From assembly GCA_038065515.1 (NCBI GenBank), contig JBBTQV010000016.1, positions 5,462-69,461 on the forward strand: a stretch of 64,000 nt of DNA, given 5' to 3'. This DNA is from Patescibacteria group bacterium (GTDB lineage Bacteria; Patescibacteriota; Minisyncoccia; 2-02-FULL-40-12; GWA2-44-9). Positions 8,992-19,552 of the stretch are shown piece by piece. The first letter of the stretch is position 1. The number at the start of each line of letters is the position of its first letter. The notes beneath the pieces were generated by a model. It saw only the letters and a list, made by a program, of their open reading frames with translations. It was not told the origin of the DNA and ran no database searches. The position numbers and the translations under genes are program-made.

Positions 8992-9394
8992 ATCCTGCAA
9001 GTTCGTTTGCAGGTTTTCGCGCACCACCGTGCTGACCGTTGTATAAAGCCGATCCATCAATCCCGCACAGCATCTCAATGGTACCCGCGCCTCCGGAGTG
9101 CGCATTGAAGAATGAGGTAACATCATACACTGCACCGTTGATAGCGGTCCAGCAGCTGGAGCGGGAGTTGTGTGCGGCAACCTGCGCCATTGTGTAATTT
9201 CCCGCAGGCAACGGTGTGGGAGTTTTTGAGACGACACCGCTTGGTGTCGGAGTAGAGGTCGGCACACCAACACCGCTCGGCGTTGGTGTCAGTCCGGTCG
9301 GCGTGGCTGCGGGACCTGGATTCGAACCAAGATATTCACCTCCAGAGGGTGACGGCCTACCGTTAGCCGATCCCGCAAAATGCGCAGAAATCAT
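8966..9394 (-). CDS. cytochrome b5-like heme-binding domain protein with Thr/Pro-rich linker
   Basis: C-terminus HNSRSSCWTAINGAVYDVTSFFNAHSGGAGT...LYNGQHGG matches the cyt-b5 fold with both His ligands. Preceded by TPTPSGVGVPTSTPTPSG linker. ORF-track start 9694 is unlikely; ATG 9394 chosen. Confidence 0.5.
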   Translation of the reverse strand: MISAHFAGSANGRPSPSGGEYLGSNPGPAATPTGLTPTPSGVGVPTSTPTPSGVVSKTPTPLPAGNYTMAQVAAHNSRSSCWTAINGAVYDVTSFFNAHSGGAGTIEMLCGIDGSALYNGQHGGARKPANELAGFKIGVLAN

Positions 9395-9441: not shown

Positions 9442-10353
9442 TTATACTCTCAAAAAACGGCGGATGGCGATGAGGGACGAAACTACGCCAAGGCCGATAC
9501 CGGCCGCCAGCGTCATGAGCACGATTTGGATGCCATTGCCGACAAAATATCCGATGAGCGAAACGCCCGGCATAACCAACGCGACTTTCGAGGAAACACC
9601 TGCGGCGCCGAAGTAAAACACGACCAAAGCCAGTACGCCCGCAAAGATGCCGTACAGCGACCCCTCCACCAGATACGGCGAGCGGATGTACCAATTCGAA
9701 CCTCCGACCAGCCGCATAATTTCGATTTCCGACTTCTGGTTGTAGATGGTCAGGCGGATGGTGTTAAACGCGACGAGCACCGCAATGACCGCCAAAATGA
9801 GCGTGACGATGAGCCCCCACTGCTGTGCGGATTGCGAAATGTTCTGCACGCGACCGATGACCGCCTCGTTCTCGTAGTAGTTTATTTTATCGATGGTCGT
9901 GCGCTGTTTGTGCGTCTCCAAAAAACTGACGATAGACGCGTATTGCCCCGTGTCGGTAGCTTTTACATTCAGCGATGCCTGCAACGGATTTGTTTCCAGC
10001 TCGGCAAGTGATTCCTGAATCAGCGCATCCTGTGCGTGCCGTTCTTTGAACTGCGCCAACGCTTCCTCACGGCTGACATATTGCACGCTTTTTACGGTAT
10101 TGAGTGACTCCAAATCAGTCTTCACCGTGCGGATGGCATCATCGCTTGCTTCGGCCTTAAAATAGACGCTCACATCCACTTTGGATTCAAGCGATGTCAC
10201 CATTACGCCTCCCAGAAAATTCACGGCGACCAGACCCAAAAACAGAATGAGCACCAGCGCCATAACTCCGGTGGTGCCGAAGCTGACATAGCTGTTGCGG
10301 CGGAAATTCGTCCATCCCGAGGTGACGACGCGGCGTAATTTTTCTTTCAACAT
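9442..10353 (-). CDS. ftsX: cell-division ABC transporter permease FtsX
   Basis: 4-TM topology with large extracytoplasmic loop. Overlaps ftsE stop. Confidence 0.85.
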   Translation of the reverse strand: MLKEKLRRVVTSGWTNFRRNSYVSFGTTGVMALVLILFLGLVAVNFLGGVMVTSLESKVDVSVYFKAEASDDAIRTVKTDLESLNTVKSVQYVSREEALAQFKERHAQDALIQESLAELETNPLQASLNVKATDTGQYASIVSFLETHKQRTTIDKINYYENEAVIGRVQNISQSAQQWGLIVTLILAVIAVLVAFNTIRLTIYNQKSEIEIMRLVGGSNWYIRSPYLVEGSLYGIFAGVLALVVFYFGAAGVSSKVALVMPGVSLIGYFVGNGIQIVLMTLAAGIGLGVVSSLIAIRRFLRV

Positions 10354-10356
10354 ATG

Positions 10357-11040
10357 TTAGATGATATATTTTCCGTTCTCCACCTGGTCGCGGACAATCT
10401 TCCCCTTCTCCATCGTCACAACTCTGCGGCTTAGGGAATCGACAATCTCGCGGTTGTGCGTGACCAGCACGACCGTCGTACCCAGTTCGTTGATTTTCTG
10501 CAGCAATTGTATCACATCGTGACTGTTCACTAGGTCGAGGTTGCCGGTAGGTTCATCGGCCAGAATGATGCGCGGACGGTGAATGAGCGCGCGGGCGATG
10601 GCCAGGCGTTGTTTCTCGCCGCCGGAGAGCTGGTGCGGAAAATTAGCAGCCTTGTCCGCCAGTCCGACGATTTCCAACGCCTTTGGAACATCTTCTTTAA
10701 TACGGCTGGTCGGAGCCCCCACGACTTCCAGTGCGAATGAGACATTTTCAAACGCGTTCTTTGCCGTCAGAAGCTTGAAATCCTGAAAAATAGTGCCGAT
10801 TTTCCGACGCAGAAGCGGAATGTCATCGTTGGACAGCGCGGCGAGATTGACTCCGTCGATGAGCACCTCTCCCGATGTCGGTTTCTGCTCGCGGGTCAGC
10901 ACGCGTAACAGCGTGCTCTTACCGGCGCCTGCCGGTCCCACGATGGAAACAAACTCCCCTTTTTCAATATGCAAATCAATTTCGTGCAAAGCTACGAAAT
11001 GGTCATCGTATACGCTGGAAATTTGTTTGAGCTCTATCAT
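10357..11040 (-). CDS. ftsE: cell-division ATP-binding protein FtsE
   Basis: Walker [10 protein letters not shown], signature LSGGEKQR, Walker [12 protein letters not shown]. Confidence 0.9.
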
Positions 11041-11765
11041 GAAAGAATGAATTTCGAAAGGTCGCCTTCGAGCACTTTCTCGGGCTGGGATGATTTCACG
11101 CCGGTGCGGTGATCTTTCACCATCTGGTACGGATGTAGCACATAACTGCGGATCTGACTCCCCCAGTCCACTGACCCTGATTTCAGTTCCGGTTTGAGCT
11201 GGCTCAACTCGGATACTTTTGACTGCTCCATGAGCACCGCCAACCGTGAGGTCAGAAGTGTCAACGCCTTTTCTTTGTTCTGCGCCTGACTCCGTTCGGT
11301 CTGCCCGACGACGGTGAGCCCGGTCGGTTTATGACGGACACGAACCGCCGTTTCCACCTTGTTCACATTCTGACCGCCCTTGCCCCCGGAGCGAAAAGTC
11401 TCGTACTCCAGATCCTGGGGATTCAACGCGAAATCCTTCGCAAGAACAATCGGCATGATCTGCACCAGCGCAAACGATGTATGCCGGAGTCCTTTTGCGG
11501 AGAACGGACTCATACGCACGAGCCGGTGCACGCCACCCTCCCCCTTCAGTGTATCATACACCGCCGGTCCGACCACTTCATACGATGCACTCTTGATGCC
11601 TTTCTGTTCCCCGAGCGATTCGTCGAGCATCGTGAATTTCCAACCGCGGGAAGCGGCGTACCGCTGATACATGCGCGCCAACATGGACGCCCAATCCTGG
11701 GCATCCACCCCCCCGGCTCCCGCGAACACGGAGAGCACGGCCTTATTTGGTTCATAGGTAAACAC
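11037..11765 (-). CDS. prfB: peptide chain release factor 2, lacking N-terminal domain 1
   Basis: SPF tripeptide (RMSPFSAK), GGQ motif ([10 protein letters not shown]), [11 protein letters not shown]. Alignment to RF2 begins near E. coli residue ~115. GTG start. Only ~50 bp separate it from the upstream gene. No CTT-TGA-C frameshift site. Confidence 0.8.
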
Positions 11766-11816
11766 GCCTCTGCATCGTACAAAAAATGAGCTCTTCTGTA
11801 CAGAAACAGACCATCG

Positions 11817-12953
11817 CTAACCAAAGGTAAAGGTAAACGCTTCAAGTCCTGGCTTCAGAATTCTGAATTCAATGATATGGGCTTCTGATCGATCGCCTTG
11901 AATGATTTTGTAGAGGCGCGCTTCTTTAATTTTCACAAATGTTTTTCCATCAGAATTTTTGACGATATCCGCTCCCGCTTCGGAGCCAAGGGGCTCTCCA
12001 TCGCGAAGAACCTCAACGACTATTTCGTTGTCTGCTTGAGAAACAAAGAAGACATCTTTTGCGTTGTATTTGTATACAATGCCGGCATTCGGTGAGCCAT
12101 TTTGAGCGGATTCATTTGCAATATTCCAATCACCGGAAAGATACAAAGTATCGGGATTGATTTTGGCGGGGGCGATGAGACTCTTCTGATCTCCGACGAC
12201 ACCGCGTGTCCCATTTCCAAAAAATTGATTGCGGGTAGCGCCAAAATATGTTTCAGGACTTTTGGGGCCGCCCTGAACGGGGATCTCTTTTGTTATCGCT
12301 TTGTCAATCGTCCCATCTTCGCCGAGAATAGCCATCCGCTCTCCCAACGCTTCTTGAATCTTTTGCTCCGTTTCCTCGTATTGCCCTTCTCCGATGTGGT
12401 CATAGACGACATAGCCGTCGATATCAATGAGGTATTTCCTTGGCCAATATTGATTCTTATATGCGGTCCAGGTCGAATAATCGTTATCGAGTACGACCGG
12501 AAACTTGATGCCAAATTTTTCTACCGCCGCTTTGACATTATTGTAATCTTTTTCAAATCCAAATTCCGGAGTATGGATACCGATGATAACGAAACCCTTG
12601 TCTTTATATTTTTCATACCACGCGTTCAGATAAGGCGTTGTTCGCTGGCAGTTGATACAGCTGTATGTCCAGAAATCAATGAGGATAACTTTTTTCCCGA
12701 TAAGACTATTGATGGCGATTGCCTTCCCGTCCGTATTTATATAGCCATCGGGAGTAGTGATTTCTTTGGCTAACTCATAGCGTTTTGATTTCTCTTCTTT
12801 TTTCGTCCCGCTTTGCTCGGAAGACATTCTCGGAACAACCGATATGGCCTCGTCCGATCCTTTTTTGCTTACGCTATTCGCATTGATAAAATCAATCACC
12901 CCCGCAATAACAATGATAGTCGCAATGAGAATGTATGGTTTTGAGACTTTCAT
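11817..12953 (-). CDS. membrane-anchored thioredoxin-fold thiol:disulfide oxidoreductase (TlpA/ResA-like) with extra C-terminal domain
   Basis: N-terminal TM helix. FWTYSCINCQ (WxxxCxxC redoxin motif). ~200-aa C-terminal domain of unknown fold. Lower GC than surroundings. Confidence 0.65.
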   Translation of the reverse strand: MKVSKPYILIATIIVIAGVIDFINANSVSKKGSDEAISVVPRMSSEQSGTKKEEKSKRYELAKEITTPDGYINTDGKAIAINSLIGKKVILIDFWTYSCINCQRTTPYLNAWYEKYKDKGFVIIGIHTPEFGFEKDYNNVKAAVEKFGIKFPVVLDNDYSTWTAYKNQYWPRKYLIDIDGYVVYDHIGEGQYEETEQKIQEALGERMAILGEDGTIDKAITKEIPVQGGPKSPETYFGATRNQFFGNGTRGVVGDQKSLIAPAKINPDTLYLSGDWNIANESAQNGSPNAGIVYKYNAKDVFFVSQADNEIVVEVLRDGEPLGSEAGADIVKNSDGKTFVKIKEARLYKIIQGDRSEAHIIEFRILKPGLEAFTFTFG

Positions 12954-13661
12954 TTATTTGAGGAGTATGTCGTTGAGAAATCCAACATTGGCAATCAGGG
13001 ACAGTTTTTGAGTAAATATGAGAACACCGAGAGCGAGGAGGACGACTCCGAAAACGAAATTGAGATACTTGAGTCCCGTCGCATGACGATTGATAAAGTC
13101 TGCGGCCTGACCTGTAAAGGCTCCCACAGCGAGGAATGGGATGCCCAGCCCCAACGCATAAGTAAGAAGGAGAATGAATGCCGAACCGGGTTGCGTTGCC
13201 GCAAGGCCGAGGATAACCCCTAATGCCGGGCCGACGCACGGCGTCCAACCGACGGCAAATGCCAAACCAAAGAGAAAGGAGGTGGCGTATCGGGATTTGA
13301 ATATTGTCTTTACCCCGAATTTATATTCCTTTTCCAAAAAAGGAATTTTGATGAGTCTCACCAAATAGAGACCGAAGAAGATAATCATCACTCCCCCCAT
13401 ACGAGAGAGCCATGCTTGCACATCATACGCAATCCCCTCAAGGAGCGTGTTCAGAAGCACCCCGAGTAGGGCAAAGACGACACCAAAACCGAGAACAAAG
13501 AACGCGCTGTTGATGAATATCTCTTTGCGCTTCGAACCCGTTTCGGTAGTACTTGCTCCCGCAAGATAAGCGAGAAAACCGGGAATGATGGGGAGAACAC
13601 AGGGCGCAAGAAATGAAACAAGTCCTCCTAAAAATGCACCAACAACAAGGCTTTCTGTCAT
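12954..13661 (-). CDS. ccdA: cytochrome c-type biogenesis protein CcdA (DsbD-family transmembrane electron transporter)
   Basis: LAPCVLPIIPGFLAY and TPCVGPALG conserved Cys motifs. 6 TM helices. Confidence 0.85.
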   Translation of the reverse strand: MTESLVVGAFLGGLVSFLAPCVLPIIPGFLAYLAGASTTETGSKRKEIFINSAFFVLGFGVVFALLGVLLNTLLEGIAYDVQAWLSRMGGVMIIFFGLYLVRLIKIPFLEKEYKFGVKTIFKSRYATSFLFGLAFAVGWTPCVGPALGVILGLAATQPGSAFILLLTYALGLGIPFLAVGAFTGQAADFINRHATGLKYLNFVFGVVLLALGVLIFTQKLSLIANVGFLNDILLK

Positions 13662-13664
13662 ATA

Positions 13665-14618
13665 TTATTGGGCCAAAGCCTTGTTAATCTCCATGTCATA
13701 GCGCTTGTCATCCCATCCTTCAGGTGACTTGAGAATCCTTTGGCCGTTCTTCACGAACACTTTCGTGTGTTGATAGGCCACGCCAAATTCCCTAGCCAAG
13801 TTTTTTTCGTCGACATCGGTTTGATCGTCGTTATAATTCACGCGGAAACCGATTGCTTTGTCCGTGGTCAGCTCCTTAAATACATTCTGCAGTATCGGAA
13901 ATTCGGCCCTGCAGACCGGACACCAGTTTGCATAAAAGTACAGGACAACGAGCTTGTCCGTCTTTAATGCCGCATCATAGTCGGCTTTGGCAAAATCAAG
14001 AAGCGGGGCGGTCTCGCCGGCCAAAACTGTTCCCGTATATTTTGCCATCATGGCTCCGTCTTCCTTTTTCTCCATCATCAAAGCACCCAATGTATCCCTT
14101 GACAGATCGCCACAAGATACGAATGTCTTTATTTCATCTTTTGATTTATGCGCCATCACCGCAAGAGGCAGTTTGCTGTTCAGTGTCTCTAGTGATACAT
14201 CGAGGATGGTTTCCGCTTTTCCGTTCAGCACCGCGCTTAACGGATATCCTATTGCGCCCGGGGTCGAGCATGAGCCCAAGTGGATGTGTGACGGCTGTGG
14301 AATGCCGACGGCGCCGGAAGAAATTTCAACTACCACCTTCGTCTTCCCATTCATGTCGCTTAGCGTCGCCTTACCCGTCTGACCGGAAGCGTTCAGCGCG
14401 TTCATTGCTACCACCGCGCCCTTCTTCTCCATCGCTTTCGTCGCTACCGCATCATCTTTTTTCATAGCATCTTCTGCGGGCTTACCCATTGCCTCTTCTT
14501 TGACCGGGGGCTCTTGTCGCGTTGCATAATAAGCGATCCCGCCAATTGCCACGACCACCGCGACGATTGCCATAGCGAAAGGCATCGCGAAACCTTTTTG
14601 TGAATAATTGTTTATCAT
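13665..14618 (-). CDS. membrane-anchored thioredoxin-like protein with possible CHRD-like N-terminal domain
   Basis: N-terminal TM. Central PSHIHLGSC segment (CHRD-like, tentative). C-terminal YFYANWCPVCRAEFP thioredoxin active site. Confidence 0.55.
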   Translation of the reverse strand: MINNYSQKGFAMPFAMAIVAVVVAIGGIAYYATRQEPPVKEEAMGKPAEDAMKKDDAVATKAMEKKGAVVAMNALNASGQTGKATLSDMNGKTKVVVEISSGAVGIPQPSHIHLGSCSTPGAIGYPLSAVLNGKAETILDVSLETLNSKLPLAVMAHKSKDEIKTFVSCGDLSRDTLGALMMEKKEDGAMMAKYTGTVLAGETAPLLDFAKADYDAALKTDKLVVLYFYANWCPVCRAEFPILQNVFKELTTDKAIGFRVNYNDDQTDVDEKNLAREFGVAYQHTKVFVKNGQRILKSPEGWDDKRYDMEINKALAQ

Positions 14619-14801
14619 GTTTTACATCCTACGCCCACGCAAAATCAATGTCAAGTCACCTTTACATACTAATTGTGGATAACTCTCGCGCTTACTCTTT
14701 CTTTCTCAGTTCCCAATACACGGAATTAACATAATTTCCTCGCACCACGCGATACAGTCCCAGCGAAAGCGCTTCGTCTTTTTTCATATCATCATCCGTG
14801 A

Positions 14802-15350
14802 TTATTTTTCGTTATCCTTTAGTAGTTTGGCAAACTCTTCCTTGACCTTCTGAAGTTTTGGATTAATAACGAGTTCGCAATAGGGTTGTGTCGGATTTTT
14901 CCGATAATAGTCGCGATGAGATTCTTCGGCGACATAAAATGTATCCAGCGGTTTTAATTCTGTCACCACCGGATTGCCTTCGCTGTGCGAAGCATTTATT
15001 TCCTTGATGAAGCGCTCCGCTTCGTTTTTTTGCGATTCGGTCGTATAAAGAATTATCGAACGATACTGCGTTCCGACATCCGATCCCTGCCGGTTTGGTG
15101 TTGTCGGGTCATGGCTCGCGAAGTATACCGTAAGCAAATCCCTGAATGAAATCTGTTGCGGGTCATACTCCACACGCGTCACTTCTGCATGGCCCGTCGT
15201 CCCACTGACGACTTCCTCGTAGATGGGATTCGATTTTGTCCCTCCGGCGTATCCAGGCGAGACCGCTATCACACCTTTCAATATGCTGAAAGTTGCTTCG
15301 GTGCACCAAAAACAACCCCCTCCGAATGCTATCACTTCAATTTTTCCCAT
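14802..15350 (-). CDS. msrA: peptide methionine sulfoxide reductase MsrA
   Basis: GGCFWCTE active site, GHAEVTRVEYDP. Confidence 0.9.
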   Translation of the reverse strand: MGKIEVIAFGGGCFWCTEATFSILKGVIAVSPGYAGGTKSNPIYEEVVSGTTGHAEVTRVEYDPQQISFRDLLTVYFASHDPTTPNRQGSDVGTQYRSIILYTTESQKNEAERFIKEINASHSEGNPVVTELKPLDTFYVAEESHRDYYRKNPTQPYCELVINPKLQKVKEEFAKLLKDNEK

Positions 15351-15354
15351 ATGT

Positions 15355-15633
15355 TTAATACTTAATCCGGCCGTATATACGCCCGATAATTTTTGCCAAA
15401 ATCATCGCACCAAGGGTACATACCATCCAAAAATCAAGTTCGTGCTTGAAGCTTTGGACAACAATGCCGATCACCAAAAGAGCTGCGCCAACAAGAAAAG
15501 CAATTCGACCCGCTATCATCTTATGAAGGCCCTCTCGTTCATCTCTGGAGTTTTCTTTCCAAACAAAGCTTGCGAACACGACAAACACAACAACGAGACC
15601 AAGCACCATCATCATGAAGAGCGCGCTCGGCAT
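15355..15633 (-). CDS. small 2-TM membrane protein (DUF2178-like, partner of the XRE regulator)
   Basis: Two hydrophobic helices. Immediately downstream of the HTH gene in a conserved pairing. Confidence 0.45.
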   Translation of the reverse strand: MPSALFMMMVLGLVVVFVVFASFVWKENSRDEREGLHKMIAGRIAFLVGAALLVIGIVVQSFKHELDFWMVCTLGAMILAKIIGRIYGRIKY

Positions 15634-15709
15634 CCAAAATGCGAATGGGTCTAAAAATAATACAAGCAGAACAATAAGAACTAGGGAGGTAGCGATTTCT
15701 TAAAAAAAA

Positions 15710-15922
15710 TTATTTTTCATATTTAAGGTAAAACACTTCTTCGAGTGGCCTCTTAAATAGCGCGGCAATTTTCAGAGCTAATATCACCGAAGGCGCATAA
15801 TTTCCTTTTTCGATTGCGATAATAGTCTGGCGAGTGACGCCAACCGCATCCGCCAACGCCTCCTGCGTAATGCCGGATTTTATTCGCAATTCGTAAACTT
15901 GATTCGTGATGAATTCTTTCAT
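15710..15922 (-). CDS. XRE-family helix-turn-helix transcriptional regulator
   Basis: [29 protein letters not shown] matches the Cro/C1 HTH. Confidence 0.8.
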
Positions 15923-16066
15923 GCATACGCCTGATAGACTGCAGTATAAGAATTAAATGTCGAGGTGTCAAATATCCTTTACATTACCGCAGCCCCGCTC
16001 ATACGAGGTTGCGTCTTCATGAGCCACCTCCCAGATTTGCACTGGGGACAGATATTTACCTACTGG

Positions 16067-16138
16067 GAGCCGACCCCGGGACTTGAACCCGGAACCCTTC
16101 GCTTACGATGCGAATGCTCTACCATTGAGCTAGGTCGG
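16067..16138 (-). tRNA. tRNA-Thr (anticodon CGT)
   Basis: Manual fold: acceptor GCCGACC/GGTCGGC, D-arm GCTC-AATGGTA-GAGC, anticodon loop ATCGTAA, T-arm CCGGG-TTCAAGT-CCCGG. CCA not encoded. Confidence 0.8.
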
Positions 16139-16143
16139 CATCT

Positions 16144-16587: not shown

Positions 16588-16665
16588 ATCCCATCATACC
16601 AACCCGGTAACCATTGTACAGCCAGACAGTGGTACCTAGCATGCATAACGATTTACCATCGAAGA

Positions 16666-16735
16666 GCGGATGACGGGAATCGAACCCGTGTCTCAACCTT
16701 GGGAAGGTCGCGTTCTACCATTGAACCACACCCGC
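16666..16735 (-). tRNA. tRNA-Gly (anticodon CCC)
   Basis: Manual fold: acceptor GCGGGTG/CATCCGC (one G-U), D-arm GTTC-AATGGTA-GAAC, anticodon loop TTCCCAA, T-arm ACGGG-TTCGATT-CCCGT. Confidence 0.8.
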
Positions 16736-16740
16736 AGACC

Positions 16741-17109
16741 CTATTTCCCCCGCACCCAATCGAGCCATTTGCGCCAGCTGGCCCGAGCGTCCCCTTCAGA
16801 CGCTTGCGGCTTGACTATTGTACCAGCTTTTTCGGATTTGTACACGAATACGACCGTTTCACCAGGCAGTTTGTAGTTCAGGCGTTGGCGAGCAAGTAAT
16901 GCCAGCCATTGGGGTTGTTGCATGCGCTGAACTTCCGATGCGAGGCGCGCATTCTCTTTCTGTGCATCTTCAATGCGTGCTTCCAATGCGCTCAATTGGG
17001 ATGCCGCACTGTACCGACGGATGCCGGCCGACACCACCAGCACCGCAAGCCACAGCATGAATGCCGTCAGCGCTACCGTCGTCAGTTTTGAGCGGAAAAG
17101 TGAGTGCAT
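16741..17109 (-). CDS. ftsB: septum formation initiator (FtsB/DivIC family)
   Basis: N-terminal TM, then coiled coil LSALEARIEDAQKENARLASEVQRMQ and LNYKLPGE. Confidence 0.6.
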   Translation of the reverse strand: MHSLFRSKLTTVALTAFMLWLAVLVVSAGIRRYSAASQLSALEARIEDAQKENARLASEVQRMQQPQWLALLARQRLNYKLPGETVVFVYKSEKAGTIVKPQASEGDARASWRKWLDWVRGK

Positions 17110-17755: not shown

Positions 17756-19552
17756 TCACTTCTTCAGCATTTTCAAGAACACATCATGCGGAATCTGCAC
17801 GCGACCTTCGGCCTTCATGCGCTTCTTGCCTTTCGCCTGTTTCTTGAGCAGTTTCATTTTGCGGGTCACATCTCCTCCATACAGGTAGCCCGTCACATCT
17901 TTTCGCAATGCGCTGATGGTCTCCCGTGCGATTATTTTCCCGCCCAACGCCGCCTGAAGCGTGACTTCAAACCACTGCTTCGGCAGTACCTCTTTGAGTT
18001 TGGTGACCATCGTGCGTCCGACATACGCCGCCTGTTCTCGCGGCACGATGCGTGAAAACGGTTCCACAAGTTCACCGGCAACCAGCGTGTCGAGGCGCAC
18101 CAGGTCGTATGATTGCACTCCTGCCGGCTCATAGCTCATGGAAGCATACCCCTGCGAGACCGATTTCAACCGGTCGTAGAAGTCGGTGACGATTTCTGAA
18201 AGAGGGACTCGATATTTGAGCACCGATGTCTCGGTACCGATATATTCGGTAGCGATGTACATATTGCGGATGGTACCCATGAGCTCCATGACTGCGCCCA
18301 TATACTGCACGGGAGCTATGACCTCAAGCGCAACGACCGGTTCGGCAATGTCGGTCCATCGCGACGGGTCGGGCAATAACGCGGCGGAGCGCACCAGCTC
18401 GGTACTCCCATCGTTCATTTGCACTTCGTACTGCACCGATGGTGTCGTCACAATGAGCTTGAGCCCGAACTCCCGCGTGAGCCGTTCGCTGACAATTTCC
18501 ACATGAAGCATTCCCAGAAACCCGAGGCGGAAACCGCGTCCAAGCCCTGCGGATGATTCCGGTTCGTATTGCAACGCCGCATCAGTGAGTTTCAACTTGC
18601 CTAATGCGTCTTTGAGCTCATCATATTGCTCACCGTTTTCGGGAAAGAAACTTGCGAACACCATCGGACGAATTTCGCGGTATCCCGGCAATGGCTCAAA
18701 ATGCGCAGGGTCGGTGCCCGCCATAGTGATAGTGTCACCCACTCTGATTTCTCCGGGGTCTTTTAATCCGGTTGCCACATATCCGATTTGTCCTTCATCC
18801 AACCGTTGTGCCGCAGTCAGTTTCGGCGCAAAATACCCGACCTCCAGCGCATCGGCGCGCGTCCGTGTCGCCCACGCCATGATTTTGTCGTTGTGGCGAA
18901 TGGAACCGGATACGACGCGAACAAATGCAAGAACGCCTTTGTACGCATCAAATGAAGAATCGAAGATGATTGCGCGCGTATTCTTGTCATGCGTCCGGCT
19001 TTGGGGCGCTGGCACGATACGGATAACGCTGTCGAGCAATGCCTGTACATTGTGTCCGGTCTTGCCGGAAATCTCGAGTATTTCTGATTCTTCAACGCCC
19101 AACAGATAGGATAATTCTTCCTTCACCTGTGCCGTGCGTGCGGTTGGCATATCGATCTTGTTCACCGCCGGTATGATGGTGAGCCCCTGGCGTTGCGCAA
19201 GATGCAAATTCGCCAGCGTTTGCGCCTGCACACCCTTCGTTGCGTCCACCAGCAAGATAGCTCCTTCGACGGCAGCCAGCGACCGGCTGACCTCGTATGA
19301 GAAATCGACATGGCCCGGCGTGTCGATAAGATTCATCTCGTATTCGGTGCCGTCGAGCGTGTAGTGCATCCGCACCGGCTGCAGTTTAATGGTGATTCCC
19401 CGCTCGCGTTCAAGCTCCATCGTGTCCAGATACTGCTCTTTCATGTTGCGCTTCTGCACGGTGCCGGTCAGCTCCAAAAAACGGTCCGCAAGCGTGGACT
19501 TCCCATGGTCGATATGGGCGATTATACAAAAATTTCTGATGTGGCTGGTCAT
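17756..19552 (-). CDS. lepA: elongation factor 4 (LepA)
   Basis: G-domain AHIDHGKST, DTPGHVDF, NKIDM. Full-length LepA C-terminal domain. Confidence 0.95.
   Translation of the reverse strand: MTSHIRNFCIIAHIDHGKSTLADRFLELTGTVQKRNMKEQYLDTMELERERGITIKLQPVRMHYTLDGTEYEMNLIDTPGHVDFSYEVSRSLAAVEGAILLVDATKGVQAQTLANLHLAQRQGLTIIPAVNKIDMPTARTAQVKEELSYLLGVEESEILEISGKTGHNVQALLDSVIRIVPAPQSRTHDKNTRAIIFDSSFDAYKGVLAFVRVVSGSIRHNDKIMAWATRTRADALEVGYFAPKLTAAQRLDEGQIGYVATGLKDPGEIRVGDTITMAGTDPAHFEPLPGYREIRPMVFASFFPENGEQYDELKDALGKLKLTDAALQYEPESSAGLGRGFRLGFLGMLHVEIVSERLTREFGLKLIVTTPSVQYEVQMNDGSTELVRSAALLPDPSRWTDIAEPVVALEVIAPVQYMGAVMELMGTIRNMYIATEYIGTETSVLKYRVPLSEIVTDFYDRLKSVSQGYASMSYEPAGVQSYDLVRLDTLVAGELVEPFSRIVPREQAAYVGRTMVTKLKEVLPKQWFEVTLQAALGGKIIARETISALRKDVTGYLYGGDVTRKMKLLKKQAKGKKRMKAEGRVQIPHDVFLKMLKK

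Follow-up and report, generated by a model that had tools for sequence, protein, structure and literature searches.

We analysed a 64,000-nucleotide stretch of DNA (the window; part of the 85-kb contig JBBTQV010000016.1 of assembly GCA_038065515.1), which comes from the 0.1-µm fraction of Hainich aquifer groundwater, and found in it a gene for release factor 2 (RF2) whose product consists of domains 2-4 only. This gene, prfB-t, and its product, RF2t, very probably represent the housekeeping prfB orthologue, from which the first ~115 codons have been deleted together with the programmed frameshift site. We also lean, by a modest degree, towards a broader reading, in which both class-I release factors would be without domain 1 in a large part of the Paceibacteria, the domain having been lost at least twice from RF2 and at least once from release factor 1 (RF1), and the autoregulation of prfB would be gone there.

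RF2t and its place among release factors

The gene and the spacer in front of it are the following:

11037..11765, (-) strand: prfB-t, encoding RF2t, an RF2 of domains 2-4 only, 242 amino acids (aa), GTG start, TGA stop
11766..11816, (-) strand: spacer of 51 nucleotides (nt) between the TAG of the redoxin gene and the GTG of prfB-t

The Pfam match of RF2t comprised positions 98-194 of the 194 positions of PCRF and the complete RF-1 domain. The NCBIfam prfB profile TIGR00020 aligned with the protein from profile position 113 to 348 of 353, and with 326.8 bits this was the best score, followed by prfA (209 bits), PrfH (92 bits), and ArfB (46 bits). In solved structures, the counterparts of RF2t residues 4-240 were residues 123-357 of E. 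coli RF2 and 118-353 of B. subtilis RF2. The four-domain architecture with an N-terminal helical domain 1 was thus not found, as the alignment began only at E. coli residue 123. This agreed with the original prediction, made from the sequence alone, of an RF2 that has lost all of domain 1 and kept SPF and GGQ. Both motifs were present, the former as S86-P87-F88 and the latter as G130-G131-Q132; among 50 relatives S86, P87, and the whole GGQ were invariant and F88 nearly so. The RHTSF decoding segment (R94-H95-T96-S97-F98) was invariant or nearly so in the same set. RF2t therefore shares domains 2, 3, and 4 and the motifs SPF, GGQ, and RHTSF with canonical RF2 (E. coli P07012, T. thermophilus, B. 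subtilis), with 45-47% identity to the solved structures. Moreover, its AlphaFold model had a mean predicted local distance difference test (pLDDT) value of 87 and a TM-score of 0.84 over the query against the closed RF2 crystal structures 1gqe and 2ihr. RF2t and canonical RF2 also share the genomic position next to ftsE-ftsX.

A programmed +1 frameshift site is a common, not universal, trait of prfB. The site (CTT TGA N) was not found in this gene, since the coding strand of 11037-11900 contains no CTTTGA, CTTTAG, or CTTTAA, and its predicted absence was thus confirmed. The original prediction had also placed an in-frame redoxin gene ending in TAG about 50 bp upstream; this stop codon was located at 11817-11819 and shares the reading frame of RF2, and the measured distance was 51 nt. 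The spacer (11766-11816) has no in-frame start, frameshift motif, promoter-like site, or terminator-like site. We attribute the loss of frameshift autoregulation to the deletion itself, because the deleted segment carried the +1 site.

Some features weigh against taking RF2t for an ordinary housekeeping RF2. Its score of 326.8 bits is below the curated prfB cut-off of 370, a shortfall explained by the missing profile positions 1-112. Besides the absence of the ~115-residue domain 1 and of the +1 site, the protein differs from canonical RF2 in two traits of its family, hereafter group A: GGQN replaces GGQH, and two residues are inserted immediately before the WGSQIRSY segment. In addition, the GTG start has an AGAGG only 1 nt away and no well-spaced Shine-Dalgarno sequence. 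An omnipotent RF2 was considered and set aside: group A shows variation at the position that we take to match E. coli E167, but in the window protein Asp is retained there.

An alternative explanation, which we consider improbable, is that RF2t is a specialised rescue or quality-control paralogue, with a full-length RF2 encoded elsewhere in the genome. Apart from the score under the prfB cut-off, it draws on the fact that the known relatives without domain 1, PrfH (RF-H) and ArfB/ICT1, are such factors. PrfH is, like RF2t, a class-I release factor homologue that has GGQ and no domain 1, but it lacks an SPF/PxT motif, has RtcB2 as its partner, and functions in ribosome repair or rescue. RF2t kept both SPF and RHTSF, and reached 92.1 bits with the PrfH model TIGR03072, whose cut-off is 166.65, as opposed to 327 bits with prfB; its gene is preceded by a redoxin gene or a tRNA gene, never by RtcB. 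ArfB resembles RF2t in the GGQ domain, which reads GGQNVNKV in some members, but it is a protein of ~140 aa with no decoding domain and with a basic C-terminal tail that enters the mRNA channel. Only residues 106-145 of RF2t matched ArfB, with 45.6 bits (cut-off 100), and the PCRF decoding domain is present in RF2t.

The position of the gene points in the same direction, because RF2t sits at the prfB locus itself, in the synteny of a full-length, frameshifting prfB. The order (DUF4012)-(MurJ)-lepA-divIC-tRNA-Gly(CCC)-tRNA-Thr(CGT)-RF2-ftsE-ftsX-tRNA-Gln(CTG) was recognisable in 11 loci, i.e., the window, four close relatives, three members of a second truncated family, two full-length relatives, and one place listed without DNA; single members were absent from some of these. 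In one of the full-length relatives (L086), the neighbours of prfB are exactly those of the window locus, and prfB-ftsE-ftsX is found in Southlakia as well. No second release factor homologue was detected in the 64-kb window or in the Parcubacteria loci scanned. Collectively, SPF, the prfB-ftsE-ftsX gene order, and the full-length, frameshifted prfB at the sister-clade locus bear out the earlier assignment of this gene as the housekeeping prfB orthologue, and not as PrfH or ArfB.

Conservation and origin of the short RF2

The best 120 matches to RF2t in a database of 5.8 billion proteins were 68-99% identical to it, and all of them were called at 214-279 aa, with a median of 242. When named at all, they belonged to Parcubacteria, Paceibacterota, or Yanofskybacteria, and often they were labelled 'PCRF domain-containing protein'. 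The start motif MFxYExNKA was found in all 19 of the relatives' sequences that were inspected; the longer calls among these 19 were due to upstream alternative starts, and the added residues were unrelated to domain 1. Between loci, the synonymous distance (dS) was saturated and the nonsynonymous distance (dN) was 0.17-0.30, with dN/dS values of 0.07-0.15 where computable. RF2t genes are under purifying selection. The short form recurred in independent assemblies from NCBI, JGI, ENA, and Logan data. Among the matches listed in the genome-contig search, RF2 proteins of other lineages were almost all full-length and ~50% identical. Short RF2 matches from a 50%-clustered representative library were discarded as Chloroflexota gene-call fragments, the family having been collapsed there to one odd representative.

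Since domain 1 is described as a flexible, separately folding helical bundle (PMC1586002), it might be produced from an open reading frame (ORF) of its own and act in trans. This split-gene arrangement is very improbable. A domain-1 profile built from six full-length sister-clade RF2s, which recovered two positive controls at E ~1e-38, found nothing in seven related truncated-RF2 loci. In the window, its best match, at E = 0.02, was XseB, the small subunit of exonuclease VII and an unrelated coiled coil. The separate domain-1 ORF for which the original prediction had proposed a search was therefore found neither in the 64-kb window nor in the seven related loci.

A local event is refuted. The original prediction had raised the question whether the redox island was an insertion that displaced the 5' end; prfB would then be a local truncation or pseudogene, confined to the window genome. 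Indeed, this island, whose guanine-plus-cytosine (GC) content is 0.43-0.48 versus 0.53-0.58, abuts RF2t, its last gene ending 51 nt before the start, and there are full-length prfB genes at the same locus in other Parcubacteria. However, four relatives that have no island (L082, L083, L084, and L087) encode the same short protein of 242-251 aa with the same start, the best 120 matches are all short, and dN/dS is ~0.1. A full-length RF2 does occupy this locus elsewhere, though solely in another clade and at ~50% identity; the close relatives are all truncated. Because the island-free relatives have the same short protein, the redox island is a later insertion and not the cause of the truncation. 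Likewise refuted is an assembly or gene-calling artefact with the true start further upstream, through a sequencing error, TAG read-through, or a missed frameshift: the redoxin gene is in the RF2 frame and ends in TAG, but the 17 in-frame codons from this TAG to the GTG do not resemble domain 1, relatives have a tRNA gene and not a protein gene directly upstream, TAG is a real stop (divIC), and the short form recurs in the four independent data sources.

The full-length relatives indicate from what the short gene may have arisen. In the sister clade, P0399 and P0414 have both domain 1 and the classical frameshift sites CAGGAC TGT CTT TGA C and AAGGAC TGT CTT TGA T; in L085 and L086, respectively, these sites end a short ORF0 upstream of the called start. 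As frameshift sites and domain 1 occur together at the same locus in the sisters, the ancestral prfB there is, on this comparison of sequences, a full-length and frameshift-regulated gene. Full-length RF2 was also found in the sampled Peregrinibacteria, Peribacteria (with CTT TGA), and Roizmanbacteria. In cultured representatives, Southlakia epibionticum, a Saccharibacterium, has an essential prfB of 1083 bp that adjoins ftsE-ftsX (PMC10633639 supplement), and the gene table of Ca. Yanofskyibacterium parasiticum contains an expressed RF2 of 969 bp (322 aa) adjoining tRNA-Thr(cgt).

A second truncated family was recognised. L036, labelled Saccharibacteria, encodes an RF2 of 255 aa in the same tRNA-Thr/ftsEX/tRNA-Gln context, and its family (Portnoybacteria and other Parcubacteria) consists mostly of proteins of 245-260 aa with the start MKDLTEKLKGKYD. 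The family merges gradually, at 65-73% identity, with calls of 329-348 aa that have a normal helical domain 1. P0291, of this second truncated group, scored 391 bits on the prfB profile, above the cut-off of 370. Neighbour-joining trees were built from 242 shared columns with 100 bootstraps. Group A was monophyletic in 100 of the 100 replicates, and the clade that combines full-length RF2 with the second truncated RF2 (B) in 98, while group A joined truncated B in none. The ends of the deletions also differ: proteins of group A begin at the first strand of domain 2, and those of truncated B keep ~13 residues of the last domain-1 helix, with a tRNA-to-start spacing of 28-40 nt that compares with 39 nt in the full-length L086. 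Because the two groups never join and their deletion end-points differ, two independent losses of domain 1 from RF2 is the economical reading. In the Paceibacteria (Parcubacteria) lineage of the window, prfB was very probably shortened by ~115 codons at its 5' end, a step that removed domain 1 and the frameshift site together.

Truncated RF1 and predicted termination without domain 1

RF2t alone would not serve all stop codons of the window. In a crude gene set, TAA was used 25 times, TGA 22 times, and TAG 21 times, about a third each, and the divIC-like gene ends in TAG where its homologues have their C-terminus, indicating that TAG is a real stop. Since all three codons are used, both RF1 and RF2 activity are needed. 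RF1 genes were sought with a DNA pattern for P-x-T-E-x-x-G-R-x-H-T-S over metagenome contigs, and at least 120 loci were obtained. Most of them encode a normal RF1 of ~360 aa; several complete ORFs (L273, L235, L300, L257, and L326) were short. They are listed here with two further loci of the truncated RF1 family (L330 and L333); forms without domain 1 are referred to as RF1t:

L273, 5508-6224: RF1t, 238 aa, start MNSNSIILEIRAGAGG
L235, 114-842: RF1t, 242 aa; 258-kb contig, same Hainich aquifer 0.1-µm fraction as for the window
L330, 10001-10723: RF1t, GCA_016192685.1, on a 608-kb contig (JACPTS010000001.1)
L333, 1990-2718: RF1t
L300: RF1 of 272 aa with intermediate N-terminal shortening
L257 and L326: RF1 of ~315 aa with shortened domain 1

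The best 120 database matches to L235 had 70-95% identity and were all of 234-277 aa; their names were Harrisonbacteria, Wolfebacteria, Giovannonibacteria, Parcubacteria, or 'PCRF domain-containing protein'. Against the prfA profile, L235 matched positions 112-348 of 361 with 347 bits, the cut-off being 423. Alignment of the protein starts indicates that RF1 is cut at the same domain 1/2 boundary in related Parcubacteria, with M..NKIILEVRAGAGG in RF1t and MFxYExNKALLSIYAGAGG in RF2t. Unlike RF2t, RF1t proteins have the RF1-type PxT motif, kept along with GGQ, and their genes usually lie just downstream of rpmE (L31), the usual neighbourhood of prfA. The database matches of RF1t and of RF2t had no protein-accession prefix in common; an RF1t was placed in GCA_040961635.1 and an RF2t in the sibling metagenome-assembled genome GCA_040961665.1 (contig JBFOMY010000055.1). 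Two candidate links between the factors were tried and rejected. A lineage-specific GGQN/GGQY motif or gene conversion in domain 3 did not hold, as the identity in this domain was an ordinary 0.44, and the shared GGQNVNKV is no mark of the lineage, being found also in cyanobacterial, Peregrinibacterial, and Roizmanbacterial RF2.

RF1-like ORFs were also seen in viral contigs. In the IMG/VR contigs L090-L209, nearly all of the 120 listed RF1-motif matches lay in ORFs of ~150-245 aa (for example, L125 3087-3797, L143 10002-10691, and L090 4434-4994), which carry RWQRVPPTE(K/R)GRVHTS and GGQ(H/N/Y)RNK, have no domain 1, and often are also without the first half of domain 2. Their prfA scores of 139-203 bits were far under the cut-off. 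In comparison with the RF1t of Parcubacteria, the phage RF1-like proteins are even shorter, at 173-245 aa, and diverge at the C-terminus.

What the loss of domain 1 may mean for termination can be judged from deletion experiments. Domain 1 is the least conserved domain of the release factors and contacts release factor 3 (RF3) and the stalk region (PMC1586002). In the work of Mora et al. 2003 (Mol Microbiol 50:1467), as related in PMC1586002, deleting domain 1 from E. coli RF1 and RF2 left codon specificity and in vitro release unchanged and abolished the stimulated nucleotide exchange on RF3. According to the same account (Baranov et al. 2006, PMC1586002, citing Mora et al. 2003), truncated RF1 works in vivo. 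These deletion constructs have the same architecture of domains 2-4 as RF2t. They are laboratory constructs in an RF3-containing host, whereas the truncation of RF2t is natural, fixed, and clade-wide. The likeness predicts that RF2t would keep codon-specific release and lack the coupling to RF3. RF2t would read UGA and UAA with its SPF region, and its GGQ would hydrolyse peptidyl-tRNA, as in other RF2s. With no domain 1, it would make no contact with the L11/L7-L12 stalk or RF3, and may leave the ribosome spontaneously. Its level would not be set by frameshifting; expression would come from upstream, i.e., from the tRNA-Thr gene in relatives and from the redox operon in the window.

RF3 itself may be absent from these organisms; the original prediction had tentatively tied the loss of domain 1 to a missing prfC, the gene for RF3. 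This gene is not essential, and small genomes had not been found to contain it (PMC1586002). Neither 'release factor 3' nor K02837 appears in the Southlakia gene table, which covers a complete genome (PMC10633639 supplement), and prfC is not among the at least 864 genes of the stored part of the Ca. Yanofskyibacterium parasiticum table. In this stored part, only a 111-aa RF-1-domain fragment was found besides RF2. Southlakia keeps full-length RF1 and RF2, and so the loss of RF3, if general in the phylum, would be permissive rather than sufficient for the truncation.

No description of a truncated RF1 or RF2 in the candidate phyla radiation (CPR) was found in the searchable literature, and such factors are not covered in the 2025 survey of prfB frameshifting, the Burroughs-Aravind release factor survey, the CPR ribosome analysis, or the Patescibacteria review. 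A clade-wide, repeated natural loss of domain 1 that affects both factors is not, to our knowledge, on record in the field, and it fits what the deletion experiments predicted. Essentially all textbook bacteria have, as far as we know, an RF1 and RF2 with domain 1. We know of no roles for this domain other than coupling the factors to RF3 and the ribosomal stalk, and laboratory deletions suggested that it can be dispensed with. Its deletion appears to have been fixed more than once in housekeeping release factors of a very large uncultivated clade, which would provide a natural test of the purpose of this domain and of termination without RF3-mediated recycling. If our reading is true, these ultra-small bacteria terminate translation with a minimal, RF3-independent system in which no release factor contacts the L11/L7-L12 stalk. 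Nature would have repeated the deletion experiment of E. coli, with the bacterial release factor reduced to its tRNA-shaped core. The prfB frameshift would have been lost here by deletion of a whole segment and not by point mutation, and this bears on why autoregulation is kept or lost. There is also a practical side. Because RF2t (326.8 bits, cut-off 370) and the RF1t of L235 (347 bits, cut-off 423) score below the curated NCBIfam thresholds, NCBI names such proteins 'PCRF domain-containing protein' or 'release factor-like protein', and pipelines for marker-gene completeness or annotation that use these models would probably score RF1 and RF2 as absent. Cultured Paceibacteria (the Minisyncoccus and Yanofskyibacterium co-cultures) would allow experiments if any of them has a truncated factor.

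The locus and the redox island

The genes around prfB-t in the window are listed in order of position:

9304..9377, (-) strand: tRNA-Gln(CTG), at the downstream end of the conserved locus
9442..10353, (-) strand: ftsX, 3 nt past ftsE
10357..11040, (-) strand: ftsE, start overlapping the RF2t stop (ATGA)
11817..16065, (-) strand: redox island, 4.3 kb of low GC content between tRNA-Thr and RF2t, absent from relatives
11817-12953, (-) strand: island redoxin (Thioredoxin_10 domain)
12954-13661, (-) strand: island DsbD-TM
13665-14618, (-) strand: island thioredoxin-like protein
14802-15350, (-) strand: island msrA
15355-15615, (-) strand: island membrane protein
15710-15922, (-) strand: island helix-turn-helix regulator
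16066..16139, (-) strand: tRNA-Thr(CGT), conserved upstream neighbour of RF2 in the lineage
16664..16735, (-) strand: tRNA-Gly(CCC), member of the conserved locus
16741..17109, (-) strand: divIC-like gene, upstream synteny marker, ending in TAG with the C-terminus as in homologues
17756..19552, (-) strand: lepA (EF4), upstream synteny marker

The original prediction of ATGA overlaps in prfB-ftsE-ftsX was correct for prfB/ftsE (11037-11040) and did not hold for ftsE/ftsX, which are separated by a 3-nt gap (TAA CAT ATG, 10351-10359). The stop codon of RF2t in the first overlap, TGA, is a codon that RF2 itself reads, and translation of ftsE may be coupled to RF2t-dependent termination.

The redox island has a strong promoter-like site, TTGACA-17-TATACT, at 15971-15943; neither an integrase nor flanking direct repeats were detected. 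Because no terminator-like or promoter-like site separates the redoxin gene from RF2, RF2t in the window is probably read through from the island. At 16018-16031 on the (-) strand, 35 nt downstream of the window tRNA-Thr, the sequence GGGAGGTGGCTC is followed by ATG. Over 12 nt this site matches the tRNA-Thr of L083, in its 3' acceptor arm, and not the window's own tRNA; an older tRNA-Thr/RF2t junction or an attachment site may have left it as a relic.

In L083 and L084, tRNA-Thr(CGT) (9923-10003 and 9924-10003, respectively) ends 2-3 nt before the ATG of RF2t, so that no space is left for a 5' leader. A GGAGG within the tRNA acceptor arm lies 9 nt before this ATG in L083, and none is present in L084. 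This arrangement suggests that in both loci RF2t is co-transcribed with the tRNA, with a leaderless or tRNA-punctuated mRNA.

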